From Candidatus Omnitrophota bacterium (GTDB lineage Bacteria; Omnitrophota; Gorgyraeia; Gygaellales; JAQTUX01), in assembly GCA_028707125.1 (NCBI GenBank), contig JAQTUX010000002.1, forward strand, positions 144,355 to 208,354: a stretch of 64,000 bases of DNA. Direction: 5' to 3'. Below, in pieces: positions 4,339-56,395 of this stretch (within the stretch, counting starts at the first letter, position 1; every line of letters begins with the position of its first letter). The notes beneath the pieces are model-generated. The model was not told where the DNA came from, did no database searches, and saw nothing but the letters and a program-made list of their open reading frames with translations. The translations under genes were made by a program, and so were the position numbers.

Positions 4339-5810
4339 TACGCGTATTTCCTGCGTATTGTTGTCCTTAACATATCTTTGATATGATCCACAACCTTCGA
4401 TCCGAACCTTTTCCGGATCATTTCTATATATGCCGGATCGCTGAAATATTCACGGAAGGCGCTGTCCCTGAAGCGCAGAACCTCCGCGGATGAAAGGTGC
4501 TTGGTCGCCAGCGCCAAAGTATCTTCCGCATACTGGCCATACGCATGCCATTGCCCCGGAAGCTCTCTGCCGTCTCTTACGGCATCCCTGTACAGGTCTG
4601 ACCCGGGATAGGCCATGGCTACATAAAAATTCACGTATTCAAAATTAAGCTCCTTTGACATATCCAGGGTCTTCCGCATGGATTCCAGAGTATCATCAGG
4701 CAGCCCGAATATAAAATTGCCGAGCGTATGAATACCCGCGCGCTTTGTCATATCAACGGCCTCTGATATTTTATCCTGGGATATCCTTTTTGCGACACCT
4801 TCACGGACACCGCCGCTCGCGGACTCAACGCCAAAGCAAAGCCAGTTGATCCCCGCCCGTTTCATCGCCGGCAGTATATCGCCGCTAACCGTATCAACGC
4901 GCGCGTATGCCCAGATATTGAGCCTGTACCCCCTTTGGATAATAAGCTCGCATATACGCGTAAGGCGCTCTTTCTTGATCACAAACAACTCATCAAGGAT
5001 CTTGATATTGCGCACATTATAATTTTTAACTAAAATATCTATCTCCTCTATTACCTTCTCCGGGCTGCGAAAACGAATGCCGCATTTACCATAGAAGGCA
5101 TGTATGGGACAATAGCTGCAATTAAACGGGCATCCCAAACTGGTGAAGATCACCGCATAGGGGCTTCTTTTGTCTAAATCCTCGAAGCAGTGCCAGTTAT
5201 GGGCCTTATACTTATGCATAGGTAAAAGATCCCAGGCGGCAAAAGGAAGGCGGTCAAGATCCTCGATCAAAGATGCGGGCGCGGGCGCTCTTACGCCGGT
5301 ATCATCCATATACCAAAGCCCTTCTATTCCGCAATCTTCCGGCCTTTTCCCGGATCTTAATGCCTCCAGGGTTTTAAGAAAGGTATAAAATCCCTCGCCC
5401 TGGCATACAAAATCTACCTTCTCCTCCCTGATGGTTTGTTCAGGAAGCGCGGAAGGATGAAGCCCGGAAAGGATCGTTTTCACAGCGCTACCCTTGCTAT
5501 GCAGGACGTTCAGGAGTTCGCTCACCGCGGTCATTTTAGGCGTGGAAGAAGCGGATGGATTGGTCCCCAAAACAACGATACCGGCCAAAAGCGGATTTAA
5601 CTCGGCGATCTTCTCTGCCGTGTATTCCGGGCTCCAGTTCTCCGCATCCGCGTCAATGATCCCTACAGAATATCCCTGCTCGCGGATGAACCCGGCGATC
5701 AACCCGCACCACAGAGGAGGTTCGATGCCGGCCAGAGACTCGCCTAATCTGCCGTACATCTGAGCGCGATTACCGGGGTTTACCAGCAATAGGTCTAACC
5801 GCTTATCCAC
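4338..5810 (-). CDS. Cobalamin-binding (class B) radical SAM enzyme, paralogue 1 of 7.
   Basis: 490 aa. The N-terminus is a Rossmann-like B12-binding domain (LLLVNPG...GIIDAD...IVVLGT). The radical SAM cluster motif is SLGCPFNCSYCP. Confidence 0.85.
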   Translation of the reverse strand: MDKRLDLLLVNPGNRAQMYGRLGESLAGIEPPLWCGLIAGFIREQGYSVGIIDADAENWSPEYTAEKIAELNPLLAGIVVLGTNPSASSTPKMTAVSELLNVLHSKGSAVKTILSGLHPSALPEQTIREEKVDFVCQGEGFYTFLKTLEALRSGKRPEDCGIEGLWYMDDTGVRAPAPASLIEDLDRLPFAAWDLLPMHKYKAHNWHCFEDLDKRSPYAVIFTSLGCPFNCSYCPIHAFYGKCGIRFRSPEKVIEEIDILVKNYNVRNIKILDELFVIKKERLTRICELIIQRGYRLNIWAYARVDTVSGDILPAMKRAGINWLCFGVESASGGVREGVAKRISQDKISEAVDMTKRAGIHTLGNFIFGLPDDTLESMRKTLDMSKELNFEYVNFYVAMAYPGSDLYRDAVRDGRELPGQWHAYGQYAEDTLALATKHLSSAEVLRFRDSAFREYFSDPAYIEMIRKRFGSKVVDHIKDMLRTTIRRKYA

Positions 5811-6526
5811 AAAGTCCTCCTCAGGATCTTCTCAGCCTGCTTAAGCCTTTCCGGAGTTCCGATATCTATAAAACCGCCCTCGGCCAAATACCCGTAAAAC
5901 TCCCTCTTCACCATAACCGGGAAAAAATCATTCTCCAAAGAAAAGTTCTTATCTTCCGGCATTTCAGACAATATCTCCTTGCGGAACAAATAAATGCCGC
6001 CGTTGACAAAACCATCGCCCTTAACGGATTTCTCGCTGAACGCGTTGATACGCTGCGACTCACCCAAAATTATACTGCCATAATCGCTGCTGTCTGATTC
6101 AGGCGAAACGACTATGGAACAGTACGCCTTCTTCCGGGTATGGAACTCTAAAAACTTGCCCAGATCTACGTCGCAGAAAGAATCTCCGTTCATAACCAGG
6201 AATATATCGCTTCCAATCTTTGAGGAGGCATTTTTGATACACCCCCCGGTGCCCATTAACGCCTTCTCCTCAGAGAATACAATATCATAATTGCCCTTTC
6301 CGCCCTTATAATATCGTTTAATAAATTCAGCCCCGTACCCTATACAGAGAATAAAACGCCTGAATCCAAAACGCGCGGCATAATCGATAAGAATATCCAG
6401 AAAAGGACGGCCGCCGATCTCTATCATCGGTTTAGGCAAATCCCCTGCAACCGGCCTGATGCGCCTGCCTTCTCCCCCGCAAAGTATTACCGCGTCTATA
6501 TCCTCAAATGCCGGCCTTTTGCTCAT
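5795..6526 (-). CDS. Sugar-1-phosphate nucleotidyltransferase, resembling the D-glycero-alpha-D-manno-heptose-1-P guanylyltransferase HddC.
   Basis: NTP_transferase N-terminus: AVILCGGEGRRIRPVAGDLPKPMIEIGGRPFLD. It sits next to a GHMP kinase. Confidence 0.6.
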   Translation of the reverse strand: MSKRPAFEDIDAVILCGGEGRRIRPVAGDLPKPMIEIGGRPFLDILIDYAARFGFRRFILCIGYGAEFIKRYYKGGKGNYDIVFSEEKALMGTGGCIKNASSKIGSDIFLVMNGDSFCDVDLGKFLEFHTRKKAYCSIVVSPESDSSDYGSIILGESQRINAFSEKSVKGDGFVNGGIYLFRKEILSEMPEDKNFSLENDFFPVMVKREFYGYLAEGGFIDIGTPERLKQAEKILRRTLWISG

Positions 6527-7527
6527 TATGTTGTCAATGAATCCCCCGGGCTGTAAAATATAATCTGGCTGCCTAAATTCTCAAACCTGAAAGGCACATG
6601 TAAAAGATCCTTTAAGCTCTCGCGGATCTTTGGCTGGGCATCAGGCCGGGCAAAAAACAAGATAAATCCTCCGCCGCCTGCGCCTAATACCTTTCCTCCC
6701 CGCGCGCCTGCCCTGATCGCCGCAGAGTAGATATCATCTATTAAGGGCGTGGCTATCTTGCTTGACAGGCTGCGTTTCAGCATCCAGTTTTCATGTAAAA
6801 GTTTCCCGAAATCCGATAAATCGGAGTTGCTGTTTAATATGCTCAAGGCCTTATCTACCAAGCCATACATGGCGCGCAGTTCTTTCTGCTTATGCGGCGT
6901 CTTCTCTATCTGCTCCCGGGCGATCTCTGATGCCGTGCGGGAAAACCCGGTAAAGAAAAGCATCAAATGGGACTGGAATACCCTGAGGCGCTCGACGTCT
7001 ATAGTCACAGGCCTGACCTGAATATGATCCTTGCCTCCGAATTCTATAAGGCTAAACCCCCCAAAGGCGGCTAACGCCTGATCCTGCGAACCGACGTTTT
7101 CCTTCATAACCTCCTGCTCAAGATGAATGGCATCCAATACCAGCTGCCGCTTAGTCGGCATGACGCCCTTAAGCGCGTAAAGCGCGTGAAGCAGGCCAAC
7201 GGTAAAGGCGGAACTCGACCCCATACCCGTGCGCGCGGGCAGATCGCCGTCGTGATGAACCTCCACCCCTTTATCTATGCCTATAAACTTCAGGCAGGCC
7301 CTGACGGAGGGATGCTGGATCTCATCGATCTCCTTTACGAATTCCATCCTGGAATATATTATCCTTGACTTATGTTCAAAGAAAGGAGGCAGATGCCTGC
7401 AGCTAAGATAGCAGTACTTATTTATCGTCGTAGCCAATACGGCTCCGCCGTTATCTCTATACCATACGGGATAGTCCGTACCCCCGCCAAAAAAAGAAAT
7501 GCGAAAAGGCGTTCGGCTGATAACCAT
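6526..7527 (-). CDS. GHMP-family sugar kinase, resembling the heptose 7-phosphate kinase HddA.
   Basis: The N-terminus (TPFRISFFGGGTDYP) and the GHMP motif (PARTGMGSSSAF), then GAGGGGF near the C-terminus. It shares one nucleotide with the downstream nucleotidyltransferase ORF. Confidence 0.6.
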   Translation of the reverse strand: MVISRTPFRISFFGGGTDYPVWYRDNGGAVLATTINKYCYLSCRHLPPFFEHKSRIIYSRMEFVKEIDEIQHPSVRACLKFIGIDKGVEVHHDGDLPARTGMGSSSAFTVGLLHALYALKGVMPTKRQLVLDAIHLEQEVMKENVGSQDQALAAFGGFSLIEFGGKDHIQVRPVTIDVERLRVFQSHLMLFFTGFSRTASEIAREQIEKTPHKQKELRAMYGLVDKALSILNSNSDLSDFGKLLHENWMLKRSLSSKIATPLIDDIYSAAIRAGARGGKVLGAGGGGFILFFARPDAQPKIRESLKDLLHVPFRFENLGSQIIFYSPGDSLTT

Positions 7528-7535
7528 ATCTCTCC

Positions 7536-8468
7536 TTAAACGTTGGAAAACTGATTTCTTCTTACGACCTGGTATCCTTTGATCAATTCTGAAATACCTT
7601 CTGGGAGCGAAATATCGGGTTTATATCCTGTGCCTTTGATCTTTCCGTTGCTTACGATATAATCCCTCTTGTCGGGATCCTCGCCTACCTCTGCCTCGGT
7701 AAAATAAAAATCGGGCGCCTGTTTCTTGATCTCCTCGCACAACTCCCGCTTGCTAAGGTTGGCATTGCTTAAACCCACATTATATGTTTGATTTTTCATC
7801 CGTTCAAAATTATTCAAACAGTGGATGAATGCCTTGGCAACATCCCGCACGTGAATATAGTTTCTTTTAAAATGCGCCTCAAAAATAACCAGAAACCTGT
7901 CCGTTACCGCGCGATAAGTAAAATCATTCACCAAGAGGTCCAGCCGCATGCGGGGACTGACGCCGAATGCCGTAGCCAGCCTCAAAGTGATGCTGTTGCC
8001 CGCGTCCAATATGGCCTTCTCCGCCTCAACCTTCAAATTACCGTAAAGGGAAACCGGACGTAAGGGCGTCTCTTCGGTACAGAAGATGCCCTTTTCTCCC
8101 ACCCCATATCCGCTGTTAGTGGTAGGGTAAATAACAATCTGCTCCCTGCTGCGCAAACCCAGTATTGTCTTCACCGCATCCACGATAATCGTCCTGGCCT
8201 CGATAGGGCGCATCTTACAGAGCGGGGCGCCGGTCAGGCAGGCCAGGGGAAAGACGGCATCCGCCCCCTTTAGATGACGAGATATCAAATCCCTGTCTCG
8301 CGCATCGCCCCTGATTATGGCCAGATTACCGTAATGGCAGCAATCCAACAGAGGGCTCTGATTATACATGAAATTGTCAATAACCGTCACTTCAAAATCA
8401 TTGGCCAATAATTGCGGGACCAATACAGAACCTATATAACCCGCTCCTCCAGTTACCAATATCTTCAT
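7536..8468 (-). CDS. NAD-dependent epimerase/dehydratase (extended SDR).
   Basis: MKILVTGGAGYIGS and a YxxxK motif. I moved the start to the ATG at 8468, which follows a GGGAGG RBS. The ORF track extends it to 8495. Confidence 0.75.
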   Translation of the reverse strand: MKILVTGGAGYIGSVLVPQLLANDFEVTVIDNFMYNQSPLLDCCHYGNLAIIRGDARDRDLISRHLKGADAVFPLACLTGAPLCKMRPIEARTIIVDAVKTILGLRSREQIVIYPTTNSGYGVGEKGIFCTEETPLRPVSLYGNLKVEAEKAILDAGNSITLRLATAFGVSPRMRLDLLVNDFTYRAVTDRFLVIFEAHFKRNYIHVRDVAKAFIHCLNNFERMKNQTYNVGLSNANLSKRELCEEIKKQAPDFYFTEAEVGEDPDKRDYIVSNGKIKGTGYKPDISLPEGISELIKGYQVVRRNQFSNV

Positions 8469-8481
8469 GGTCTTCCTCCCA

Positions 8482-9186
8482 TTAACGCCAAACAAATACC
8501 TCCTTTAAAACCTGAGTCAAATAAGCCGAGCCCCAGCGCACTATCTGTAATTTTCGCTTACCCCATAACCTGCGCGGCTCATCAGCAGGAATCTCGGTAA
8601 TCCTTAATTTTCTCTTTGCGGCCCTAACCGAAAGAAGAGGCATAATACATATCTTTGTATGAAACAATGCCTCCTCCCGGGAATAATTTTCATCCCTGTC
8701 AAGCTCTAAGTCGCGTATCAACTCCTTTTTAAAAGCGCGGAACATATTCATCGCGTCTGTATACTTGCCTCCGTGAAGCACGTTAATCAAAGAGGTGAAC
8801 ATCCAATTACCGAACGAAGTTATTAAACTGTCATCGTAGCTCCTGGCATCTTTTAAATATCGGGAGGCGATCACCATATCATATCCTTCCTCCATTTTCT
8901 TAACCAGCTGGGGTATGACCTCGGGTTTGCAATTACCGTCCGGACTGAATGGAATGATCACATCCCCTGTTATGCGGCCCAACGCCTCAATGTAGGCGTT
9001 CCTTATACCGGGTTTTTTCTGGACGATAACTGAATAACCGTTCTTCATGGCGTATTCAGCGGTTCCGTCGGTGGATCTTCCATCCACCACGAAAATCTCA
9101 TCCACCCATTCCCTTTTAATCTGCGGCATGATCTGCTTCATGCCGTCTATCTCATTCAAGGTCAATACAAGTAAGGTTGTCTTCAT
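8482..9186 (-). CDS. Family-2 glycosyltransferase, Dpm1/polyprenol-phosphate sugar synthase-like, soluble form.
   Basis: 234 aa. N-terminal GT-A motifs: LLVLTLNE, VVDGRSTDGT. No C-terminal transmembrane segments. Confidence 0.65.
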   Translation of the reverse strand: MKTTLLVLTLNEIDGMKQIMPQIKREWVDEIFVVDGRSTDGTAEYAMKNGYSVIVQKKPGIRNAYIEALGRITGDVIIPFSPDGNCKPEVIPQLVKKMEEGYDMVIASRYLKDARSYDDSLITSFGNWMFTSLINVLHGGKYTDAMNMFRAFKKELIRDLELDRDENYSREEALFHTKICIMPLLSVRAAKRKLRITEIPADEPRRLWGKRKLQIVRWGSAYLTQVLKEVFVWR

Positions 9187-10729
9187 TAAAACTCCTCCGG
9201 TCTGATTTATAAAAGATCTTGTTTCTCAGGTACTTAATAATCGCCAGATCGCCGAAGAACGTGTAGTATTTATTCTTCAGCCTGAATCTGTAATAACGGC
9301 TTATCGGCACATAGGCGATCTTCAACACAGCCCTTAAGAAGGCGTTCCTGATAGAATTGATGACATTAGGCACGGCATTGGCGAGGATGCTCATATAGGA
9401 TATATTTCCCAGCCGTATCCTGTCCTTACGATCAAACCAGGGATTCTTTCTGCCTTCCAGATCATAATCATCGTAAATCCAGTCGATCCACCCCTCCAGC
9501 TGCCGGGGCGCCTTGAGGCCGTTTTTAAGCGCCGACTCATACATTGGCGTCGCCGGCAGGGCCGTATAAATGGCCATGGTCTCAAACAGGGCGTTGGGAT
9601 TATCCCTTTTGAGGCGGAAAGAAAGGTCTATGGTCTTATCGATATCTTCAAATGTTTCACCGGGAAAACCGATCATTAACGCAAAGGCGGGAGTGATCCC
9701 CGCGGCCTTTGCCTTGAGATTGGCCCTGATCGTATCTTCTACCTTTATGCCCTTATTGGAAAGCTCCAGCACCCTGTCTGAACCGGACTCGGCGCCGAAT
9801 TTCAGAACATAGGCGCCGCTCTTTTTTAGAAGCGCCGTCTGCTCATCGCTGGCCTTATTAAAAACATCTACCCGGGTTCCGGATGTATACCAATGGATCT
9901 TCAGGTCATTCCGGATGATCCCTTCGCATATCCTCTGGGCCCTTTCCCGATTGATGTAGAACTCATCGTCCCTTATCCAGATGCCGCTGAGCCCGAATCT
10001 CTTCACCGTATCTACGATGATCCCGAGGCTCTTTTCAACAGACATATCGCGCCATTTCCTCTTTCGCAAACTTGCGCTGCTGCAAAAGCCGCAGTTAAAC
10101 GGGCACCCCCTGCTGGTCTGGCCTATGTCAAGGGTCCTTAAACTTTCCTTTAAATACATATCGGGATGTATGTACTTTTCCACGTCGATCAATCCCCATG
10201 GGACAGGCAATAATCCCTCAACGTCAATCAATGCCCGATCCGGGTTTCTTACGGCCCTGCCGCCGTCCTTGTAGGCAATGCCTTCTATCCCGGAAAGCGA
10301 GCCGCCTGAGGCCAGCGCCCCTACTAACTCCCGGAAGGTAACATCGCCTTCGCCAACGCAGACTATATCCACGTATTCGCTCATCAGGGTTTGCTCCGGC
10401 AGTATAGACGGATGCGGCCCGCCCCAGACTATCGGGACCTTGCCGCCCGCGGCCCTTCGCACGACCTTTGCCGCTTCAATCGCAAAGTGGATCTGCGTGC
10501 CTGTCATTGAAGAGATGCCTACGCATACGGGGCCGGACTTCAATGCCTCGGTTAAATTGCGGCCCCAATCCTTATCCACCCGCTGGTCTATTATACTGAC
10601 CTTATAACCGCCCTTCTGAAGCGGCGCGGCTATGGTTAAAAGAGAATGCGGCACGGCAACGGTTGAGCCGAAATCCATCCCTGTCTTGGGATAAACAAGG
10701 ACTACATCTGCGGCTTTATTTTCCTGCAT
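9152..10729 (-). CDS. Cobalamin-binding (class B) radical SAM enzyme, paralogue 2 of 7.
   Basis: 525 aa. B12-binding N-terminus (VVLVYPKTG...IIDQR...VWGGPHPS) and radical SAM motif TSRGCPFNCGFCS. Confidence 0.85.
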   Translation of the reverse strand: MQENKAADVVLVYPKTGMDFGSTVAVPHSLLTIAAPLQKGGYKVSIIDQRVDKDWGRNLTEALKSGPVCVGISSMTGTQIHFAIEAAKVVRRAAGGKVPIVWGGPHPSILPEQTLMSEYVDIVCVGEGDVTFRELVGALASGGSLSGIEGIAYKDGGRAVRNPDRALIDVEGLLPVPWGLIDVEKYIHPDMYLKESLRTLDIGQTSRGCPFNCGFCSSASLRKRKWRDMSVEKSLGIIVDTVKRFGLSGIWIRDDEFYINRERAQRICEGIIRNDLKIHWYTSGTRVDVFNKASDEQTALLKKSGAYVLKFGAESGSDRVLELSNKGIKVEDTIRANLKAKAAGITPAFALMIGFPGETFEDIDKTIDLSFRLKRDNPNALFETMAIYTALPATPMYESALKNGLKAPRQLEGWIDWIYDDYDLEGRKNPWFDRKDRIRLGNISYMSILANAVPNVINSIRNAFLRAVLKIAYVPISRYYRFRLKNKYYTFFGDLAIIKYLRNKIFYKSDRRSFNEDNLTCIDLE

Positions 10730-10736
10730 AGCTCTC

Positions 10737-12095
10737 CTAAAGAATAAAGGCCAGATTATTCCTGACCCAGCTCAGAATCGGGACGGCCATCACATAGAAT
10801 AAAAGGTTCAACGCCATAATAACGCCTATTATTGCCAATGACAGGTATTTATTTTTGAACTTGCCCCAGATAGTAAATATACCCAGGCTGGCGAATATTA
10901 TCAAATATGGCTCCAGAGGGTAACGATGCCTGGTGTCGCCTGAAAAGATCATAACCATAAAACTGGCATACAAAAATGATAACAGCAGTAATGCGGTGTT
11001 TACGTTCAACCCGGGCCTCACGGCTTTGATTATGCCGACTATACCGAACATAAGAATAATTGAATACCAGATATTATATATCCTCTGCATACCGTTATTA
11101 TAATGCGTCTGAAATACATCCCATAGGCACAATACTTTCTTAAGCAGCAATTTCGGCATGCGCTTATAATCAGCGGCTATAAATTTAATGGCGGTATTCT
11201 TATAGAATTTATCCTGCTCCACTTCGTTCATCCGGCTGATCTGCTTCATTTCTTCATTCGTAAATATCCGGCTGAAATCGCCGAAGGAGCTCCCCTTTGC
11301 ATAAGGGTTATTGCTGTTAAGCAGGGCGCCTCCGCCCATTGTGGAAAAAGGGACGAGCGCCCTGTGCACAAGATAATTTCTAAATGCCCATGGCGAAATA
11401 GTCAGCGTGAAAACAGCGCACATAACCAATATCCCTCTTAACGCGAGCTTAAGCGGATAACGGTATATCAACAATCCGGACAAAAATAGAGGGAAAAAGG
11501 CATTAAACGGCCTTGTTAAGGCAAGCAGGCCCAGAAAAACCCCGGATATAACCGCTCCTTTCATCTTAAGATTTACGAAGAAACCGCTTATCAGGAATAA
11601 TACAAATAAACCATACAAAATGTTGAACAGATTCTCCGAATACAGGAATCCCGGGCCGCCATAAAAGGCATAAGATATATACGGCTGATAAAAGGCAAGT
11701 ATAAGTGCCGACAATAGCCCTATGCGTTCATCAAAGATCTTCCGGCCGATATAATAGATAATAACGCACAATAAAGCGCCCATAATGCTCTGAATGACCC
11801 TTACCGCGACATAATTATGGCCAAAGGCCCGATAGATAGATGCCAGAAACAAGGGATATAAAGGGGTGCGCAAAGATGTCGGCCCCTTTTCCGGATCCAT
11901 GGAATAACCATTGCCTGACGCTAAATTGACGGCTATAGTGTCGTAATCCAGCGCATCAGCTCCCGGTTTTTGCAGGTATCGCGGCAGATTCAAAACAGCC
12001 GCTATGCGCAAAGATAAGGCGGCAACGAAAATTAACAACAAAAGCCGCTTCCTATATCTTGTCCAATTTGAGAATACTGAATTTACCATCATCAT
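10737..12095 (-). CDS. GT-C membrane glycosyltransferase, ArnT/PMT (GT39/GT83-like, PMT_2) family.
   Basis: 452 aa with about 11 predicted transmembrane segments. First-loop signature: ADALDYDTIAVNLASGNGYS...RTPLYPLFLASIY. Confidence 0.6.
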   Translation of the reverse strand: MMMVNSVFSNWTRYRKRLLLLIFVAALSLRIAAVLNLPRYLQKPGADALDYDTIAVNLASGNGYSMDPEKGPTSLRTPLYPLFLASIYRAFGHNYVAVRVIQSIMGALLCVIIYYIGRKIFDERIGLLSALILAFYQPYISYAFYGGPGFLYSENLFNILYGLFVLFLISGFFVNLKMKGAVISGVFLGLLALTRPFNAFFPLFLSGLLIYRYPLKLALRGILVMCAVFTLTISPWAFRNYLVHRALVPFSTMGGGALLNSNNPYAKGSSFGDFSRIFTNEEMKQISRMNEVEQDKFYKNTAIKFIAADYKRMPKLLLKKVLCLWDVFQTHYNNGMQRIYNIWYSIILMFGIVGIIKAVRPGLNVNTALLLLSFLYASFMVMIFSGDTRHRYPLEPYLIIFASLGIFTIWGKFKNKYLSLAIIGVIMALNLLFYVMAVPILSWVRNNLAFIL

Positions 12096-13806
12096 AAACT
12101 TCTGATATCCCTATGTTATTTCTTAAAACAGATTCTTCAACCCTGGATTTTCTTTCCTCATTTCTTACCAGGATGTGATTAAGACGGTATTTACTTAATT
12201 TATCTGCCAGATACTTTCCGTTCAGAAACAGCTTAGATTTTCCCTTGAGATAATCGATATATTCCTGATCTATGCCTCTGCCCCCATATTCTTTGATAGC
12301 GCCCATACAAACAAAATGCGCCCCGTTACCATGTCGGATAAATTCCTCGGCATCTCTGCTGTCATAACCAAACAGCGATAAAGCGATAAAATATCTGTCC
12401 TCCAGTTCTTCTTTAGATCTTATGGTCCCGATAAATAACGGTAGGAATATAAAATTATTTGTATAAAGGAGTATATCGCCTGGTGTCGGGTCTGCCTGCT
12501 TCAATTCATTGAAGGGATCAACAAGCACGACATCATCTTGGCCGGCATGCTCCTTTAGCCAGGAAAACGGCGCTGATAAGGATTGTCTCTGCGCGTATCT
12601 CGCCTTATACACATGATAATAGTGGGTCTGTTGGCTAAGCGCGGATACAGCCATAAGAACCAATATCACTCTAAATGACAATTCCTGCAATAACCTGCTG
12701 CTAACTATCCCTGCCGGCAGCCTCAGGCCGTTTAAGGATGAGAACAGCGCGATTATCAAGAATGTCTTATTGCTGTAACCGAGCCAGTGCCCGGGGAATA
12801 AAGTCATCCCGGAAATCAAATGCTGGTTCGAACAGATCAATCCTCCAGCCAGGAAAGAAACAATGAAAGCAAATCGGATGCTCCTTTTTTCTCTGTAGAA
12901 TGACATGATAAGCAATGTCGGAATTAAATAGAAAGCCGGCAATATCAGTTTGCGGGAATACACAACATCGTTAAAATATCGCAAGGCATCGTAATGAGGA
13001 TGATGCATAACCTGCCGTAAATTCAGCCAGTAAGGAATCGATATTATAAACGATACCGCGATTATCAGCATCATTCTTCGTAACAAAGCGTATTCCTTCT
13101 TTAGTGCGAGCAATATCATTAACACAAACAGGCCGGCATAAATAAACGTCCAATAATATATAAACGCGTAAAATAACGACCCTACCGCAGCTGCGGCAGC
13201 CCACGGGATGAGGCGGCCTCGTGAATAAAGCGCCTTATATACCAAAAGAAGGGATAAAATAAGCATAACATGATTAAACTGCGGGGAAACCGGCCTTAAA
13301 AACCACAATGGTTCAGCATATTTCAAGGTTAATAACTCTTTTAGTATCCATATTTTCCCCGTAAAGAAGCGATAGGCCAGCAATATACCGGCTGAACCCA
13401 GAATGCCAAGGTTCTGCGAACCGCAAAGTTCAAATATGAGACGGTAAATTAACAAAAACAGGACCGCGGGCAAAATAAAGCTCAACAAAATGTCCACCCG
13501 GACAACAGAGAGGCCCAAAACCCTGCCCACAACCCCTGAGAAGGCCTCCGGGAGAAAGCCGAATGTCCATGGCTGCCGGACGTGTTCATAGTTGTCAAAG
13601 CCGGAAAGCGTAGGATTACCTCCTTTATAAAAGGCGTTTACCCTGCCTAAATATTTGTCTTCATCAGAGGTCGTGGTTAAAGAGATACCGCGGTAATCAT
13701 CGCCCAGCTCATAACGGAACCGCATATCCGGATATATGTATATGCACCCGATCACGGCCGCAAGCGCAAGCAATAATACAATCTTCCGCAGTCCTTTACC
13801 CGGCAT
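12052..13806 (-). CDS. Integral membrane protein of unknown function, possibly a GT-C-like glycosyltransferase or a polymerase.
   Basis: 584 aa. It has an N-terminal signal or transmembrane segment, then about 10 hydrophobic helices, then a ~150-aa soluble C-terminal domain. It lies between two ArnT-like genes. Confidence 0.4.
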   Translation of the reverse strand: MPGKGLRKIVLLLALAAVIGCIYIYPDMRFRYELGDDYRGISLTTTSDEDKYLGRVNAFYKGGNPTLSGFDNYEHVRQPWTFGFLPEAFSGVVGRVLGLSVVRVDILLSFILPAVLFLLIYRLIFELCGSQNLGILGSAGILLAYRFFTGKIWILKELLTLKYAEPLWFLRPVSPQFNHVMLILSLLLVYKALYSRGRLIPWAAAAAVGSLFYAFIYYWTFIYAGLFVLMILLALKKEYALLRRMMLIIAVSFIISIPYWLNLRQVMHHPHYDALRYFNDVVYSRKLILPAFYLIPTLLIMSFYREKRSIRFAFIVSFLAGGLICSNQHLISGMTLFPGHWLGYSNKTFLIIALFSSLNGLRLPAGIVSSRLLQELSFRVILVLMAVSALSQQTHYYHVYKARYAQRQSLSAPFSWLKEHAGQDDVVLVDPFNELKQADPTPGDILLYTNNFIFLPLFIGTIRSKEELEDRYFIALSLFGYDSRDAEEFIRHGNGAHFVCMGAIKEYGGRGIDQEYIDYLKGKSKLFLNGKYLADKLSKYRLNHILVRNEERKSRVEESVLRNNIGISEVYDDGKFSILKLDKI

Positions 13807-13815
13807 ATCTATCGA

Positions 13816-15111
13816 TCACCATAAATGAATCTTTTCCATAAATGACCTTGCGAATATCTTCGCCTGATAAGAGTTAAAATATATGAAAAGATTCAGAAGA
13901 AGATACGACCCCGTCAACAGGACACCGTAAATCCTCCTGGAAAACCTTAAAACAAAATAGTAGATTCCCGCCGAAGCGATAATAATGATATACGGCTCCA
14001 CCGGCAGGCGGAACCTGGGAGAGCCGTACATGATCAATGTGATGAAAACGGCGTAGATTACAGGCAGATACACGGGCAGCAGTTCCTTGAGCCTCCTGCG
14101 CGTGATAAATATACCATAGATAAAAAACGGCATTATAAAAACGTACATAAAATTATATATCCCGTATCCGATGATCTCCCAGTCAAACGGAGACCAGAAA
14201 AATCCGAGCTTTAACAGCTCCAGCTTAAGTACCTTCAGCGGATTGCGCCTGATATATTTCAACGCCTCCCTTGCCAGAAAGTCGCTTCGTTCTGCTTCGG
14301 AATCCAACAGGTCGGCCTTTTTAGTCGTATCGTCCTTAGGGTGCAGCCCGAATAATTTACCGTTCTGCGGAACATATGAGCCGTATAGGCCCATGCCCGT
14401 CTTATTGGTGATCAATGTAAATCTATGATGCAGCTGAGAATTCCTTATTATCCAGGGCAATATCGGCAGCAGGAAAAAGGCCACAAAAATAAGTACCCCT
14501 GCCAAAATTTGCCTGATATTATACCATTTGGGGAACATCGCCCTGCCTGATAACGATAAAATAAACAGGGGGAATAAAACCAGCATATCGCGGACCATAA
14601 CAGCAAGCCCTAATACTATGCCAAGGACGACTAGATTCCTGAAAGTATGTTTCCGAAGCTGCCTTAGCAAAAGAAACATCGCTATAACGAGCAGAAAAGT
14701 AAAAAGATTTTCATTTCTCAGGTACTGCGAAATCTTGACAAACCCCGGGTTGAAACAGGCGATCAAGGCGCTTATCAGGGCAACCCTTGTATTAAAGATA
14801 TCCTTTGATATTAAGAATATTACGGCGCAGACCACTGCCCCTGATAATATCTGGATAATTATCAACGCGGAATAATTATGGTTAAATGAATAAAGCACCG
14901 AGGCGATAAAGAACGGGTAAAGCGGCGGATGGCATGAGGTTGCCTGCCCGTTGATCGAATAGCCCCGCCCATCAAGGACATTCTGCGCCAATTCCCCATA
15001 CCCCTCCACGTCGCCCGGCGTTATATGTAAAACGGGGAGAAGCAAAATCAACCTTACCAAGAACGCGCCGACGATGATCACGAATATAAGCCTTGCGTCT
15101 TTCATGGTCAT
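13816..15111 (-). CDS. GT-C membrane glycosyltransferase, ArnT/PMT_2-like; paralogue of the gene at 10737-12095.
   Basis: 431 aa, multi-pass membrane protein. Loop signature: GDVEGYGELAQNVLDGRGYS...HPPLYPFFIASVLY. Confidence 0.6.
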   Translation of the reverse strand: MTMKDARLIFVIIVGAFLVRLILLLPVLHITPGDVEGYGELAQNVLDGRGYSINGQATSCHPPLYPFFIASVLYSFNHNYSALIIIQILSGAVVCAVIFLISKDIFNTRVALISALIACFNPGFVKISQYLRNENLFTFLLVIAMFLLLRQLRKHTFRNLVVLGIVLGLAVMVRDMLVLFPLFILSLSGRAMFPKWYNIRQILAGVLIFVAFFLLPILPWIIRNSQLHHRFTLITNKTGMGLYGSYVPQNGKLFGLHPKDDTTKKADLLDSEAERSDFLAREALKYIRRNPLKVLKLELLKLGFFWSPFDWEIIGYGIYNFMYVFIMPFFIYGIFITRRRLKELLPVYLPVIYAVFITLIMYGSPRFRLPVEPYIIIIASAGIYYFVLRFSRRIYGVLLTGSYLLLNLFIYFNSYQAKIFARSFMEKIHLW

Positions 15112-16103
15112 AAGATACCTTCTAACCCCGAATATATTATCTGCGCCATCTTTTCGTTGCCTTGATCTGAGAAATGGGCGATATCGCTGAAATATTTACA
15201 GCGAGATTCATAATCCAGGGATTCAAAAAATGAAGAACAATCCAGCAGGCGGGCGTTATTTTCCCCGCAGACACCCTCGATTATATCGATAGTATCCCTG
15301 TATCTCTGCGAATCATAATCCCTGGCAGGATACTTAACTACTATGGGCATTATATTGTTTTGCCTGCATATCATTATCATCTCTCTCAGATCTCCGGCAA
15401 AGACCGGCAAAAGGTCCTTATAGACCTCATCAAATTTACCCGCCCCGGACGCGTTCTGTCTGTTGTTAAACAGGCCGCCGATGGCGTTTTTCAGTTTTAA
15501 ATAAACAATGCTGTTATCTACCAGGAAATTGTTAACCCTCGCGGAAATGGGCAATCCTTTAAAGTAGACATTTCCCGGCACCCAGCTGTATTTCGACTTC
15601 AGGCAGCCGACCAGGTTCCAACCGGTAAAGATAATCACCGCATCCGGCTCAAGCGCCAATATGTCTTTCCTCAACCTGGCAGCCAGATTGCTCGAACCAT
15701 AGCCGCAGACGCCCGCATTCAATACTTCGTAGTCCGGCGGCTGCGAGCCATTATTAAGGAGCCCTTCCAGGATCTGCGGCCAGACCTTCGCGTTGTCAAA
15801 CTGCTCCTGGCCAAAGGTAGTGGATTCTCCCAGGCAGACGATCCTGACCTTATTGCCTTTATTTATATCAAAATGGCCTTTTCTCATACCCCGATAGCAT
15901 AATCCATGCTTACCTTTATATTGAGCGCTTATCTTATAACCTAAGGCCTCATCGCCCTCATAAAGAAAGGATTCCTTATAACCGAAATGGTGTTTTTGAT
16001 AAAAATACCATCTCCCTGAAAGCTCTAATAGAAACAGGAAAAGAAATGTAAAGGCCAAAGACATTAAAAGTACCCTGATATTCTTCATTTCATTATTATC
16101 CAA
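15108..16103 (-). CDS. SGNH/GDSL-family hydrolase, a candidate sugar O-acyl esterase or transferase, with an N-terminal membrane anchor.
   Basis: GDS(L) block IVCLGESTTFG. The D..H catalytic block appears as DIAHFSDQGNEKMA. The N-terminus is a hydrophobic helix. Confidence 0.55.
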   Translation of the reverse strand: MDNNEMKNIRVLLMSLAFTFLFLFLLELSGRWYFYQKHHFGYKESFLYEGDEALGYKISAQYKGKHGLCYRGMRKGHFDINKGNKVRIVCLGESTTFGQEQFDNAKVWPQILEGLLNNGSQPPDYEVLNAGVCGYGSSNLAARLRKDILALEPDAVIIFTGWNLVGCLKSKYSWVPGNVYFKGLPISARVNNFLVDNSIVYLKLKNAIGGLFNNRQNASGAGKFDEVYKDLLPVFAGDLREMIMICRQNNIMPIVVKYPARDYDSQRYRDTIDIIEGVCGENNARLLDCSSFFESLDYESRCKYFSDIAHFSDQGNEKMAQIIYSGLEGIL

Positions 16104-17473
16104 TGAAAGAACCTCTTTAAGAGGAACCCGAAATGCCTGAAGGACTTGATCCCCAAAAGATTCTTCAATATTATGCGCGGCCTGGTATAAAACTTCAGGA
16201 ACGCCGATCGCTGTAATGACCTGAGCTGCTTATTGGATAATCCCCCATGGCTGTAAGGGGCGCTCATAAAATAAAATCTGTCCCAGTTAACCTTATTGAT
16301 CTCGCCGCTAGAAACCAGCCCGCTGTAACTTTCGGTCCCGGGAAACGGCAGATACGTGAAATAATTAGCCCGAATCAAGCCAAGGTCCAATGAGAAGCGT
16401 ATCGTCTTTTTTATATCTTCGACGGTCTCTCCGGGAAAACCGATAATAAAAAATCCTGCTATATCTATACCGAAGCGGTGTATCAACTCTATGCCTTCGC
16501 GGATCTTCTTGAGCGTTACGTTCTTTTTCATAAGGCCCAGGACCCTGTCGGAACCGGATTCTATGCCTAAAGATATTAAATAAAGCCCGCTCTCCTTCAT
16601 CAACTTCAGCAATTCTTCGTCCAGGCTGTCGATACGCACCCCGTTGGGAGTAGCCCAGCTGATATCCAGGCCCAGGTCAATAAGTTTCCTCAAGAACTCT
16701 TTGGCGTAAACCTTATCAAAAATAAAGTTATCATCGATAATATGGAACTCCCTGATCTTGTGCCTGTCATACAAATATTTTATCTGGTTAATTATAAAAT
16801 CCGGGCTATGTCTTCGTATCCGCCTCCCCGATACGATATGCCCCGCGCAAAAGGTGCAGGCAAATGGGCATCCGCGCGTAAGCATGATCGGGGCAATGGG
16901 GAATTTCTTGAAAAACGCCCCATGCTGGGACTCAGGGTATTCTTCCGGCCGGATCAGGTCCCAGGCCGGCATGCCTAAAGTATCCAGATCGTCGACAAAT
17001 TCCCGCTGGTTTATCTTAATCGTGCCGTCGTCCCTGAAGGCCAGCCCGGGAATGCCGGAGATGCCGGCCGACGAACTGCCGCTCAATTTATCAAGCAATA
17101 ACGGCAGCGCCCTTTCCGCTTCTCCCACAAAAATAAAATCCAAAGAATCGTTAAAATACTCAAAACTTTCCCTGGGAAGCGCCGAAGGATGCGGCCCTCC
17201 TATCGCCGTAATAATCCCCCTCCTGTAACTCCTGCACTCGCACAATGCCTCTCTGATAAAGTCCATGTCAAAGGTATAACATTGGAAACCCACAAAATCG
17301 GGATTATAGCTTTTAAGCGCGTTCTTAAACTGACCTATTTTTATATTCTCCTTTATACAGTCCAGTATCCTGACGTCGCCCCTGCTCCTTATGGCTCCGG
17401 CCAGATAGCCCAGGCCCAGCGACGGTTGTATATGGTCGGTTAAGTTATACGGTTTTACCAATAGCGTCTTCAT
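16085..17473 (-). CDS. Cobalamin-binding (class B) radical SAM enzyme, paralogue 3 of 7.
   Basis: 462 aa. The N-terminus is MKTLLVKPYN...ILDC...AIGGPHPS. Radical SAM motif: TRGCPFACTFCA. Confidence 0.85.
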   Translation of the reverse strand: MKTLLVKPYNLTDHIQPSLGLGYLAGAIRSRGDVRILDCIKENIKIGQFKNALKSYNPDFVGFQCYTFDMDFIREALCECRSYRRGIITAIGGPHPSALPRESFEYFNDSLDFIFVGEAERALPLLLDKLSGSSSAGISGIPGLAFRDDGTIKINQREFVDDLDTLGMPAWDLIRPEEYPESQHGAFFKKFPIAPIMLTRGCPFACTFCAGHIVSGRRIRRHSPDFIINQIKYLYDRHKIREFHIIDDNFIFDKVYAKEFLRKLIDLGLDISWATPNGVRIDSLDEELLKLMKESGLYLISLGIESGSDRVLGLMKKNVTLKKIREGIELIHRFGIDIAGFFIIGFPGETVEDIKKTIRFSLDLGLIRANYFTYLPFPGTESYSGLVSSGEINKVNWDRFYFMSAPYSHGGLSNKQLRSLQRSAFLKFYTRPRIILKNLLGIKSFRHFGFLLKRFFHWIIMK

Positions 17474-18980
17474 TGCTCTGTGATAATGCCTTATCTTGCG
17501 CGAGTGAATATATATACTGCGATCTGATAAACATGGTTATCGATTCTTTCATGCGAATATAAAGGTTCCTGCCGATAGATAAAAAGAATATGGAAACTAC
17601 CCTGGTAAAGGCATTGATGGGTATCCTTTTTATCAAAGGATGCAGGAAATCCGGCGTCTTTGTCAGTATCGGTATCAACACCTGCAGCCTTTTGGCCTCC
17701 TCTACCTCCACATTCTGCAACAGGCTGCCTTCTTTCATATTCCTAAGGTCGGTATCTTTCCTGAGGGCGCTTTCGCCGTTACAGATCCTTTCATAAATGT
17801 CCTTACGCAAAAACCCGTTTTGAAGGCAAAAATCGGTCAATTCCGTGTGGGGAAACGGGTAAAAGATGGTCATGATCGTGCCGTCGGGTTTTATCCGCCT
17901 GTTCAGATCATATGTCTGCCACATCTGTTCGCGCGTTTCAGTCGGGAAACCGACTATGTTTAACGTGCAGAACCTGATCCCGACCTCCTTCAATGTTCTG
18001 GACGTATTAACGATATCCTCGTTGCTCATATTTCTTTTAAGCAGCTTGCGCCTGAGCTCTTCATTACCCGACTCTATGCCGATATCCGTATAGATGCATC
18101 CGGCCTCCGCCAGCTGCCTCATCGTGTCTTTCTTCACGGCCTGAGGGTGCACCATTATCTTGAAGGGAAGCCGTATATCTCTTTTATAGATCTCGCAGAA
18201 TCTCCTTACCCAGTCCTCGTTTATGGTGAATATGTCATCGTAGAAGAATACCTCTTTTATCTTATACCTGTCCTTGAAGAACCTGAGCTCGCTGATAACG
18301 TTTTCCACGCTTCTGCGGCGGACGTATGGTTTGCCGCTGATATTAAATAACTTTCTGTAGTGCGAATTGAAACAGTAAGTGCACTGATGAGGGCATCCCC
18401 TGCCGCTCATCACATATAACCTGTCGGAAAAGCAACCGTATTTCCTGAAGCCGTCTTTGTCCGGGAACGGCAGCGAATCCAGGTCCTGAATAAGCGGCCG
18501 CGACGGATTACGCACGACCTCGCCGTCGCGCTTAAACCATATATTTCTTGTAGAATAGTCCACATCACCCTTCTGCATGCCGTTGACGAGTTCAAGCATC
18601 GCCTCCTCGCCTTCGCCCACGCATATCATATCAATATTGGGGTTTTTTATGACATATGCAGGCAGTATAGTCGGATGTATCCCTCCCACTATAATCGGGA
18701 CATCCATACGCTGCTTTATAAGACCTGCCATTTTGGATACCCAGGGATATAGATTGGTCAGGCAGGAAAAGGCTATTAAATCGGGGGAATACTCCTCGGC
18801 CCTTCTGACCATCTTCTCGCCGACGTCAAAGAACCTGTCCAGGACTTTAAACCTGTATTCTATGTCCCCTGAACCCGGGTCAAAAAGCAGCTCTGTCTGG
18901 TGCCCGGCATTCTTAAGGACGCTGGATAAATATTCTATGCCCAGCCACTCAGCGTTCCTGTGAAAAAATAACACCTTCAT
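17445..18980 (-). CDS. Cobalamin-binding (class B) radical SAM enzyme, paralogue 4 of 7, in tandem with paralogue 3.
   Basis: 511 aa. The N-terminus is MKVLFFHRN...IVGGIHPT. Radical SAM motif: SGRGCPHQCTYCF. Confidence 0.85.
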   Translation of the reverse strand: MKVLFFHRNAEWLGIEYLSSVLKNAGHQTELLFDPGSGDIEYRFKVLDRFFDVGEKMVRRAEEYSPDLIAFSCLTNLYPWVSKMAGLIKQRMDVPIIVGGIHPTILPAYVIKNPNIDMICVGEGEEAMLELVNGMQKGDVDYSTRNIWFKRDGEVVRNPSRPLIQDLDSLPFPDKDGFRKYGCFSDRLYVMSGRGCPHQCTYCFNSHYRKLFNISGKPYVRRRSVENVISELRFFKDRYKIKEVFFYDDIFTINEDWVRRFCEIYKRDIRLPFKIMVHPQAVKKDTMRQLAEAGCIYTDIGIESGNEELRRKLLKRNMSNEDIVNTSRTLKEVGIRFCTLNIVGFPTETREQMWQTYDLNRRIKPDGTIMTIFYPFPHTELTDFCLQNGFLRKDIYERICNGESALRKDTDLRNMKEGSLLQNVEVEEAKRLQVLIPILTKTPDFLHPLIKRIPINAFTRVVSIFFLSIGRNLYIRMKESITMFIRSQYIYSLAQDKALSQSNEDAIGKTV

Positions 18981-53704: not shown

Positions 53705-53900
53705 GTAATTTTGGCCTGTTGCCCTGAAAAACCCGAGTTTTCCGGGGGGTGGCGTTCTAAAAATGAACGATTACCATTTTACGGCTTTTGCCCTGCTTTG
53801 TCAAGTGACTTCTGCGTTCAAATCAGCCGGAAAAAGCCGCTATCTTAAGCTCGTATCTTCTTCAAATGCAATTGGTTTTGCTCCTGTAGAAAAGGCGGGA
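53705..53900 (-). promoter_or_regulatory. Largest intergenic region in the window; candidate promoter/operator or attenuator for the regulator gene and the downstream nonulosonic-acid genes.
   Basis: It is a 196 bp non-coding gap in an otherwise gap-free locus. It contains a weak stem followed by a T-run (CCCGGAAAACTCGGGTTTTT on the transcribed strand) about 30 nt upstream of the regulator start. Confidence 0.3.
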
Positions 53901-55439: not shown

Positions 55440-55463
55440 AAGCGCTGCGGCCCCGTTTATATT

Positions 55464-56393: not shown

Positions 56394-56395
56394 TC

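Follow-up and report, generated by a model that had tools for sequence, protein, structure and literature searches.

A stretch of 64,000 nucleotides from contig JAQTUX010000002.1 of a Candidatus Omnitrophota bacterium (assembly GCA_028707125.1, positions 144,355 to 208,354; hereafter, the window) was analyzed around five consecutive genes at positions 8482-15111, which encode a short family 2 glycosyltransferase (GT2), a cobalamin (B12)-binding radical S-adenosylmethionine (SAM) enzyme, and three multi-pass membrane proteins. This segment is probably the junction of two blocks, i.e., a rare-sugar cassette (block A, from the left window edge to 10729) and an Arn/Gtr-like periplasmic glycosylation arm that the cassette would feed (block B, 10737-19682). 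The radical SAM gene that is sandwiched between the glycosyltransferase genes (9152-10729; hereafter, rSAM*) belongs to block A, as its constant partners in other loci are the short GT2 (GT2_234) and sugar-nucleotide enzymes and not the GT-C glycosyltransferases. In the proposed pathway, an HddA-like kinase and an HddC-like nucleotidyltransferase of block A would activate a sugar, which would be tailored by a short-chain dehydrogenase/reductase (SDR), a pair of proteins resembling the E1 subunits of pyruvate dehydrogenase (PDH-E1), a FAD oxidase, and an aminotransferase, with two class B radical SAM enzymes adding radical chemistry, most likely cobalamin-dependent C-methylation. GT2_234 would hand the product to a lipid carrier for a GT-C such as GTC452 (10737-12095). 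In block B, a second short GT2 (GT2_233) would charge polyprenyl phosphate with a sugar at the cytoplasmic face and, after flipping, a pair or trio of GT-Cs, beside which an anchored SGNH enzyme is located, would transfer the lipid-phosphate-linked sugars to a periplasmic acceptor. Candidate acceptors are a protein of the cell surface or a glycan of the lipopolysaccharide (LPS), O-antigen, or capsule type.

The window is a single co-directional array of 59 minus-strand genes; the locus exceeds 62 kb, its largest intergenic gap is 196 bp, and the same DNA is present on a 104-kb Logan contig. The five open reading frames (ORFs) were confirmed at 8482-15111, where they overlap or stand 7-9 bp apart, and the gene order and families described in an initial annotation (a Dpm1-like GT2, a class B radical SAM enzyme, and two GT-Cs of the PMT_2 type) were recovered with Pfam scores above the cut-offs. 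Scans of all window genes against Pfam and NCBIfam indicated a surface-glycan locus, with rhamnose genes, UDP-sugar dehydrogenases, a nonulosonic-acid set (NeuB, NeuC, PseB-like, and CMP-transferases), a Wzx flippase (37016-38569), several methyltransferases, and transferases of the GT2 and GT4 families. The radical SAM genes with a B12-binding domain number eight, and one small radical SAM gene (39416-40315) was also detected. Gene neighborhoods were compared with seven genome loci from a genome-collection scan, 79 metagenome loci, and loci retrieved by an exact-protein look-up, and the ORFs of fetched loci were annotated by BLASTP against the window proteins. Neighbors were counted in the 40 metagenome loci of at least 8 kb that contained an rSAM* orthologue of at least 50% identity.

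On the basis of profile and alignment data, rSAM* can be placed in an uncharacterized class B radical SAM subfamily. The protein matched PF02310 (B12-binding, 64.5 bits, cut-off 32.1) and PF04055 (Radical_SAM, 86.9 bits, cut-off 29.5), and the cysteines of its CxxxCxxC motif (C209, C213, and C216) were invariant among 22 orthologues with a mean column identity of 73%. The orthologue family was large and tight, with >120 clusters at 60-75% identity, and its members in cassette loci (55-72% identity) came from records labelled Omnitrophota, Patescibacteria, or a Planctomycetales metagenome-assembled genome. rSAM* fell into none of the characterized subfamilies, including BchE, HpnJ, HpnR, PhpK, AprD4, and ApyD; the best match was BchE with 133 bits (cut-off 481), and HpnJ scored 114.8 bits (cut-off 577.6). 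Its chemistry is most likely cobalamin-dependent C-methylation, which is the default assumption for the enzyme class.

rSAM* and GT2_234 form a conserved and often translationally coupled pair. Their genes overlap by 35 nt in the window, and a GT2_234 orthologue was found near an rSAM* orthologue in 20 of 46 loci, at a distance of <200 bp in nine, with a 4-nt overlap in five, and of <1 kb in four more. Among the 40 loci used for neighbor counts, the genes accompanying rSAM* orthologues were PDH-E1-like beta (20), a second B12 radical SAM designated B12rSAM_a (20), PDH-E1-like alpha (18), GT2_234 (18), the SDR epim319 (15), the GHMP kinase (12), and the nucleotidyltransferase (12), whereas a PMT_2-like GT-C occurred in six loci and the 584-aa membrane protein of the window (mem584) in none. 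Two loci, L003 and L007, carried the whole cassette (FAD oxidase, radical SAM, GT2_234, E1 alpha and beta, SDR, GHMP kinase, nucleotidyltransferase, and DegT aminotransferase) without the three GT-Cs, and B12rSAM_a was also part of the cassette of L003. All three GT2s of the polyprenyl-phosphate type in the window adjoin a B12 radical SAM gene, which is expected in 1.5% of permutations. However, when the focal orthologue was excluded, such adjacency amounted to 22% in other loci compared with 7-35% for other gene classes; a general pairing of polyprenyl-phosphate GT2s with B12 radical SAMs was therefore dropped, and only the rSAM*/GT2_234 pair stands.

The initial annotation had suggested that the radical SAM enzyme might act as a step between the donor synthase and the GT-C, and this part of its interpretation was not supported by the comparison. 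The order GT2-radical SAM-GT-C was found in no other locus examined, and literature searches retrieved no description of it. Since the window contains eight B12 radical SAM genes and the sandwich is expected in 6.9% of random orders of its genes, the arrangement alone does not go beyond chance; it is a feature of this locus rather than a conserved design. A direct counter-example was provided by L014, in which the order was GTC431 (63% identity), mem584 (52%), GTC452 (66%), GT2_234 (58%), two SDRs, a radical SAM, E1 alpha, E1 beta, rSAM* (66%), GHMP kinase, and nucleotidyltransferase. Here, GTC452 abuts GT2_234 with a gap of 44 bp, and the rSAM* orthologue is found within the sugar genes at a distance of 5 kb.

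The proximity of rSAM* to a donor synthase leaves room for a different order of events, in which rSAM* would act on the polyprenyl-phosphate-linked monosaccharide made by GT2_234, at the cytoplasmic face and before flipping and transfer by a GT-C. We regard this as unlikely. The coupling of the rSAM* and GT2_234 genes is consistent with it, and so is the occurrence of rSAM*, GT2_234, and a GT-C within about six genes in the window and in L014, L021, L025, L033, and L044, but the commonest neighbors of rSAM* are soluble nucleotide-sugar enzymes, and in L014 it is GT2_234 that stands next to the GT-C, with rSAM* among the E1 and GHMP genes. Radical SAM precedents on lipid-linked sugars exist in HpnJ, which acts after HpnI and HpnK, and in the calditol synthase Cds (PMC13459092). 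In terms of the substrate, the linkage of rSAM* to soluble sugar enzymes favors a nucleotide sugar, whereas its coupled GT2 partner and the HpnI/HpnK/HpnJ and Cds precedents favor a lipid-linked sugar. A basic, aromatic C-terminal tail was considered as a mark of membrane association of rSAM* and was rejected, as all eight radical SAM paralogues of the window have such tails and the feature therefore does not discriminate rSAM*.

GT-C enzymes of at least four families were located immediately beside rSAM* orthologues, namely PMT_2 in the window and L061, a TMEM260-like protein in L085, a DUF6044/YfhO-like protein in L064, and a family designated c1 in six loci. A large multi-pass ORF was present in 34 of the 40 rSAM* loci, and a demonstrable GT-C in at least 14; membrane proteins of 735-1081 aa (clusters c3 and c4) also adjoin rSAM* orthologues. 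This recurrence, which would fit radical SAM action just ahead of GT-C transfer, is suggestive but not proven, since the loci are interrelated and GT-C genes are common throughout such clusters, which makes proximity weak evidence. The c1 family has no Pfam model and comprises proteins of 552-586 aa with an invariant Asp in 'GPTDDF' after helix 1. Its 14 genes were found in L035 (11556-16702 and 3061-4767), L030, L040, L042, L062, and L086, with one to four genes per fetched locus, and in five of these six loci they were convergent to, and immediately after, the rSAM* orthologue; homologues were labelled Patescibacteria or Paceibacterota. Profile comparison (hhalign) did not link c1 to either the PMT_2 or the mem584 profile (5-10%). 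The AlphaFold2 model (pLDDT 86.7), for which the top 33 PDB matches were all GT-Cs, predicts that c1 is a GT-C-fold family. An extended version of the lipid-linked scheme holds that the rSAM*/'SPD' GT2 unit makes and then radically tailors a polyprenyl-phosphate monosaccharide at the cytoplasmic face, by C-methylation or rearrangement, which interchangeable GT-Cs would deliver to the surface in Omnitrophota- and Patescibacteria-labelled lineages; it is likewise held to be improbable. In the preferred scheme, rSAM* is assigned to the sugar cassette.

Two further observations concern radical SAM enzymes in related loci. In L096, a GT4 glycosyltransferase domain and a B12-binding radical SAM domain are fused in one 891-aa protein (11141-13816), the gene of which adjoins a mem584-like GT-C gene and three more B12 radical SAM genes. 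This covalent fusion hints that such radical SAMs work directly with glycosyl transfer. In L014, a second sugar module (2886-7974) composed of a GHMP kinase, a SIS isomerase, a B12 radical SAM, a HAD phosphatase, a transaldolase (TAL_FSA), and a GT2 is located upstream of the same GT-C trio. The module resembles heptose/octose nucleotide-sugar pathways, and the substrates in such loci may accordingly be higher-carbon sugars.

GT2_234 (8482-9186) and GT2_233 (18981-19682) are DPM1/AglJ-like enzymes of 234 and 233 aa, with PF00535 (Glycos_transf_2) scores of 62.1 and 137.8 bits, respectively (cut-off 23.3). The Arn/Gtr/Dpm-Pmt logic that had been proposed for the segment appeared reasonable, as polyprenyl-phosphate glycosyltransferases were the only proteins at the top of the solved-structure searches for both enzymes, and the suggestion that 18981-19682 encodes a further GT2 of this type was borne out by its canonical DPM1/AglJ-like sequence. 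For GT2_234, the best solved relative was the DPMS of Pyrococcus (PfDPMS, 5mlz; E-value 3.7e-10), followed by three ArnC entries and GtrB, with no other significant matches. GT2_233 aligned with 5mlz over residues 1-210 (E-value 2.9e-22), and PfDPMS, ArnC, and GtrB were its top PDB matches; in the HMMER alignment, it carries the full motif as DADLE and the equivalents of the A-loop residues R202, E206, and K208 of PfDPMS. No membrane helix was predicted in GT2_234 or GT2_233, and the amphipathic C-terminal segments that occur in short GT2s are not diagnostic of membrane association.

Compared with PfDPMS, GT2_234 keeps D38, the metal-binding D91, R117 (in the context 'ASRY'), and a Ser/Thr near S135 (in 'ITSFGNW'), and the metal-binding Gln of the motif, Q93, is replaced by Asn. 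The A-loop residues R202 and K208 are also kept according to a MAFFT alignment with GT2_233 that was read by eye against the GT2_233/PfDPMS alignment, and the pattern 'EIPxDEPxRxxGxRK' was seen in 27 of 31 orthologues in the same manner. The altered positions are D39, which is Gly in GT2_234, D89, which is Ser, and H94; as a family hallmark, 'FSPDGN' replaces DADLQ in 24 of the 31 distinct orthologues. In PfDPMS, D39 binds guanine and D89 and H94 contact sugar hydroxyls, with D89 contacting the sugar and not the metal (PMC5526996). As the metal-binding Asp and the phosphate-binding residues are retained and the positions reading the guanine and the sugar are changed, GT2_234 looks like an enzyme with a different donor substrate rather than a dead enzyme. 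GT2_234 probably loads the cassette sugar onto a polyprenyl-phosphate carrier, and GT2_233 probably makes such a carrier-linked sugar for the GT-C block, with polyprenyl phosphate as the presumed acceptor of both.

Several observations weigh against the two-block pathway. No protein examined here reached an NCBIfam equivalog cut-off: the top matches of the short GT2s were AglJ, Dol-P hexose transferase, ArnC, PgfS, and PpgS, with AglJ scoring 91.9 bits for GT2_234, of which AglJ, Dol-P hexose transferase, and ArnC were the best matches, and 141.4 bits for GT2_233 (cut-off 325), and ArnC scoring 42.8 and 71.8 bits, respectively (cut-off 529), so that both enzymes can be assigned at the clade level only and not to a named enzyme. 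Many loci with an rSAM* orthologue (L008, L010, L011, L051, L065, and L069) had neither GT2_234 nor a recognizable GT-C in the available DNA, in which many flanks were incomplete. Neither a GtrA- or ArnE/F-like small flippase nor any ORF of 50-200 aa with at least two hydrophobic segments was detected on the whole coding strand of the window. The loci are also phylogenetically non-independent and dense in B12 radical SAM genes, and the linkage statistics therefore overstate independence. Finally, GT2_234 lacks the first Asp of the DXD motif and has no membrane helix, which makes an ordinary role in glycan elongation possible. As a separate observation, small flippase-like ORFs are absent from the coding strand in a window that encodes up to three polyprenyl-phosphate-type GT2s and four or five GT-C enzymes.

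The elongation role corresponds to an alternative in which GT2_234, and possibly GT2_233, would be ordinary peripheral GT2s that add the rare sugar to a growing undecaprenyl-pyrophosphate-linked oligosaccharide in the cytoplasm, and the GT-C trio would function independently with donors from elsewhere, e.g., from the GtrB-type enzyme encoded at 55464-56393. The S-P-D sequence in place of DXD, the Gly at the base-recognition position, the missing helix, and the NCBIfam scores far under the cut-offs would be compatible with such a role, and the Wzx flippase, two other GT2 genes, and one GT4 gene of the locus fit a Wzx/Wzy-type repeat unit. On the other hand, polyprenyl-phosphate glycosyltransferases make up all of the top solved relatives, and the R...G..K of the A-loop is kept together with the Arg and Ser/Thr that bind the acceptor phosphate in PfDPMS. 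Moreover, the catalytic domain of PfDPMS (residues 1-229) has full activity and is targeted to the membrane without any transmembrane helix (PMC5526996). The gene order also argues for a link between the short GT2s and the GT-Cs, as a gap of 44 bp separates the orthologues of GTC452 and GT2_234 in L014 and one of 7 bp those of GT2_233 and GTC431 in L015. This alternative is thus considered quite unlikely, and a role of the short GT2s in lipid-carrier charging is preferred.

The three membrane proteins of the segment appear to be GT-Cs. GTC452 is a PMT_2-type protein (PF13231, 40.6 bits, cut-off 26.1), and GTC431 (13816-15111) is of the PMT_2/PMT type (PF13231, 64.5 bits, cut-off 26.1; PF02366, 38.2 bits) with about 10-11 hydrophobic segments. 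They are paralogues with 33% identity over 429 aa, which was the sole relation detected by BLASTP among the membrane proteins of the window. The first-loop signature that the initial annotation expected was present in both proteins and their orthologues as an acidic residue followed by Y, A, G.G[YF], and PP[LVF]Y. mem584 (12052-13806), which lies between them and ends in a C-terminal soluble periplasmic domain, had no Pfam, NCBIfam, or PDB sequence match, and its family is small (17 homologue clusters). The previous description of this protein as a membrane protein was correct; its fold, then left open, can now be modelled as GT-C. The AlphaFold2 model based on the family alignment (pLDDT 85.5, pTM 0.88) had only GT-Cs as its top 21 PDB matches in Foldseek (STT3, AftA, DPY19, PglB, AftD, and AglB), after which the E-value jumped from 7e-3 to 0.1; the TM-scores of 0.42-0.53 establish the fold class and not the acceptor specificity. 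Furthermore, residues 48-268 of mem584 aligned with residues 34-229 of the PMT_2-like profile (hhalign 87.7%), its N-terminal helix is preceded by Lys and Arg, and E49 and Y52 of the following loop are nearly invariant. The model thus predicts mem584 to be a third GT-C, from a family that is new to Pfam. PDB sequence searches with GTC431, mem584, and two other membrane proteins of the window (mem569 and mem570), as well as with the mem584 and mem569 profiles, yielded nothing useful. In each of the three GT-Cs, helix 1 comes after positively charged residues, which would place the acidic loop outside, and their family membership suggests that the donor is lipid-linked and used on the periplasmic face.

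An identity of the three proteins as O-antigen polymerases or ligases (Wzy, WaaL) or transporters, named in the initial annotation as the outcome that would overturn it, was rejected, as no such Pfam or NCBIfam match was obtained and the folds are GT-C; likewise, the metal-binding Asp of the GT2s is kept. Wzy_C was found in other loci (L003). The three GT-Cs may instead be protein O-glycosyltransferases, which would act in the manner of PMT or TMEM260 on a pilin or on a protein of the surface or S-layer and not on a lipid or glycan. GTC431 also matches the PMT family, but ArnT-like enzymes that act on lipids and glycans fall within PMT_2 as well; the best matches of the mem584 model include the protein glycosyltransferases STT3, PglB, and DPY19, but these matches give the fold class only. 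The TMEM260-like GT-C that adjoins the radical SAM orthologue in L085 and the presence of the radical SAM family in Patescibacteria-labelled records also point in this direction; to our knowledge, Patescibacteria have no outer membrane and no LPS. However, the locus context is that of a classic polysaccharide cluster with Wzx, nonulosonic-acid, and rhamnose genes, and the window encodes no candidate acceptor protein. Protein O-glycosylation is therefore a doubtful function for the trio, and the more general transfer of lipid-linked sugars to a periplasmic acceptor is retained.

The GT-C block is itself conserved. Orthologues of GTC452 (59-66% identity) occupy the corresponding place in L014 and L097, those of GTC431 (44-63%) adjoin mem584 homologues in L014, L015, L016, and L097, and those of GT2_233 (52-55%) lie near GTC431 or mem584 in L015 and L097. 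For mem584 homologues of at least 35% identity, a PMT_2-like gene was adjacent or one methyltransferase gene away in 6 of 6 loci, and a polyprenyl-phosphate-type GT2 was present in the same fetched locus in all six, at 0.1 to about 7 kb. Block B continues with an SGNH/GDSL hydrolase or acyltransferase (15108-16103; PF13472, 48.3 bits), which has one N-terminal helix and is predicted to be membrane-anchored and probably periplasm-facing, and with two class B radical SAM genes identified by Pfam, B12rSAM_d (16085-17473) and B12rSAM_e (17445-18980). The SGNH enzyme is part of the conserved GT-C block, with a 65% orthologue in the same position in L097, where the order is rSAM_d (77%), SGNH (65%), GTC431 (61%), mem584 (54%), and GTC452 (59%). 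B12rSAM_d recurs with the GT-C block and GT2_233: its orthologues share 77% identity in L097, where the gene adjoins the SGNH-GTC431 pair, 63% in L015, and 51% in L009, where it adjoins a GT2_233 orthologue. In L015, GT2_233 (52%) is followed by GTC431, a methyltransferase, and mem584; in L016, a 68% orthologue of B12rSAM_e is directly upstream of GTC431 and mem584, which are followed by a methyltransferase and a GtrB-like GT2. In L096, a GtrB-like GT2 and a mem584 homologue (35%) are followed by a 446-aa protein that weakly resembles GTC452 (28% over 150 aa, 47 bits).

In the order of transcription, block A of the window consists of the SDR (7536-8495), the HddA-like GHMP kinase (6526-7527), the HddC-like nucleotidyltransferase (5795-6526), B12rSAM_a (4338-5810), the PDH-E1-like alpha (3322-4338) and beta (2268-3395) genes, and a FAD oxidoreductase (1134-2267), all assigned by Pfam or NCBIfam, with HddA and HddC as the best NCBIfam matches of the kinase and nucleotidyltransferase; a DegT aminotransferase gene follows beyond the window edge (L001). 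The PDH-E1-like proteins scored just under the NCBIfam pyruvate dehydrogenase cut-offs (319.3 vs. 393.85 and 318.7 vs. 321), are located in a sugar cassette without E2 or E3, and kept 55-70% identity across many loci. They may perform a thiamine-dependent two-carbon branching of a keto-sugar.

A second donor-synthase unit is located at 53901-58105, where the initial annotation had recognized an ArnC-like GT2/GT-C pair beside a radical SAM. This was supported by the present data: a class B radical SAM gene identified by Pfam (B12rSAM_h, 53901-55439) is followed, in ascending coordinates, by a GtrB/ArnC-type GT2 (55464-56393) with two C-terminal helices (PgfS 293 bits, ArnC 140 bits) and by mem569 (56396-58105), which is a PMT_2-like GT-C of a Pfam-less family. 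The mem569 family comprises 290 representatives without a Pfam match, and its profile is related to the PMT_2-like profile (hhalign 92.4% over 345 columns). On the other hand, mem570 (50219-51931), proposed previously as a fourth ArnT-like paralogue, is a multi-pass membrane protein as described but is only possibly a GT-C; it had no Pfam, NCBIfam, or PDB sequence match, hhalign gave only 57% against the mem584 profile, and a 24% homologue adjoins the cassette in L007 and L019.

Other features of the window are less directly connected with the segment. The B12 radical SAM paralogues share a pairwise identity of only 23-32% and are thus old paralogues rather than recent duplicates. Promoter-like and terminator-like sites occurred at chance frequency in a scan of the window. 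The 196-bp gap (53704-53901) is the sole sizeable non-coding gap of the array; it lies on the 3' side of B12rSAM_h (53901-55439) and directly upstream of a winged-helix/MarR-like gene (53081-53704) with a weak C-methyltransferase match at its C-terminus, and may be an internal regulatory point. Within the nonulosonic-acid gene set, a HisH/HisF-like glutamine amidotransferase/cyclase pair (41590-43118) adjoins a 403-aa Pfam-less protein (40348-41559), an arrangement that serves to make acetamidino groups on sugars of this kind. A 578-aa protein (29107-30843) without a Pfam match weakly matched TIGR04326 (a Leptospira LIC13510-type surface carbohydrate biosynthesis protein), and GTC431 also matched the Leptospira LA_3751/LA_3752 family weakly; these matches may be echoes of the long one-strand LPS loci of Leptospira.

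The surface glycans of uncultured host-dependent phyla such as Omnitrophota and Patescibacteria are essentially uncharacterized. The presence of eight cobalamin radical SAM genes among sugar genes indicates a surface-sugar chemistry without a studied example, most likely C-methylation of unactivated carbons. New elements include the radical SAM/'SPD'-GT2 pair, which is tightly conserved and biochemically uncharacterized, and the rare-sugar cassette that goes with it, the Pfam-less families mem584 and c1, for which a GT-C fold is modelled, the Pfam-less mem569 family, related to PMT_2 by profile comparison, and a dense association of cobalamin radical SAMs with periplasmic glycosylation machinery in these lineages. 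For experimenters, the question takes an either/or form, i.e., whether the radical SAM substrate is a nucleotide sugar or a lipid-linked sugar. If the latter were true, a sugar carrier of the polyprenyl-phosphate type would for the first time be the substrate of a radical SAM enzyme, and the Arn/Gtr/Dpm paradigm would gain a new type of step; a review of radical SAM enzymes to 2025 makes no mention of polyprenyl, undecaprenyl, or dolichol substrates (PMC13459092).

Among known systems, the Arn pathway of lipid A aminoarabinose modification (ArnB, ArnA, ArnC, ArnD, ArnE/F, and ArnT) shares with the pathway proposed for the window the tailoring of a nucleotide sugar by an SDR and a DegT aminotransferase, the loading onto undecaprenyl phosphate by a GT2, and the periplasmic transfer by a PMT_2/ArnT-type GT-C, and ArnC structures were among the best matches of both short GT2s. 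In the Arn pathway, ArnD edits the lipid-linked sugar before flipping. In contrast to ArnC, the short GT2s lack the two C-terminal helices, and the ArnC equivalog score of GT2_234 is far from the cut-off; the window encodes no ArnE/F-like flippase and has three GT-Cs in the segment instead of one, and block A adds a GHMP kinase, a nucleotidyltransferase, the PDH-E1-like pair, a FAD oxidase, and two B12 radical SAMs. O-antigen glucosylation systems of the GtrA/GtrB/Gtr(type) kind and PgfS-type systems combine a polyprenyl-phosphate glucose synthase with a serotype-specific GT-C of little sequence conservation. The pair at 55464-58105 is a close fit to this scheme in its PgfS score, its two C-terminal helices, and its adjoining Pfam-less PMT_2-like GT-C. 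However, there is no GtrA, the focal GT2s are DPM1-like without transmembrane helices, and each donor synthase gene of the window has a B12 radical SAM gene at its side.

DPMS (DPM1/PfDPMS)-PMT systems and the archaeal AglJ/AglD enzymes provide the best sequence relatives of GT2_233 and GT2_234, and PMT/PMT_2 is the cognate GT-C family. For human DPM1 and shortened PfDPMS, a catalytic domain of ~230 aa without transmembrane helices is sufficient (PMC5526996). GT2_234 differs in having SPDGN(C/S) for DADLQH and Gly for the guanine-binding Asp39, no DPM2- or DPM3-like partner was evident, the genes are located in a bacterial polysaccharide locus, and the AglJ scores are far under the cut-off. 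The nearest precedent for radical SAM action between a donor synthase and a GT-C is the formation of the hopanoid cyclitol ether by HpnI, HpnK, and HpnJ, together with calditol synthesis by Cds, in which a glycosyltransferase makes a lipid-linked sugar that is then remodelled by a radical SAM enzyme. The HpnJ step, which follows HpnI and HpnK, was deduced from a gene deletion and from a ring contraction that has been proposed (PMC13459092). HpnJ was also among the best NCBIfam matches of the B12 radical SAMs of the window, with 115-154 bits, which is far under the cut-off of 577.6. In contrast to the scheme considered here, the lipid in these systems is a hopanoid or a glycerol dialkyl glycerol tetraether and not polyprenyl phosphate, the product is an end-point lipid and not a GT-C donor, and no hopanoid genes are present in the window.

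Pairs of E1 alpha and beta proteins are also part of branched-chain deoxysugar pathways of actinomycete antibiotics, such as AviB1/AviB2 (avilamycin) and AlmDI/DII (aldgamycin). As in block A, these pairs are located among NDP-sugar tailoring genes without E2 or E3, a likeness that serves as a lead only, whereas the antibiotic pathways contain neither a B12 radical SAM nor a lipid-carrier GT2. By analogy, the E1 pair of the cassette suggests a thiamine-dependent two-carbon transfer to a keto-sugar.

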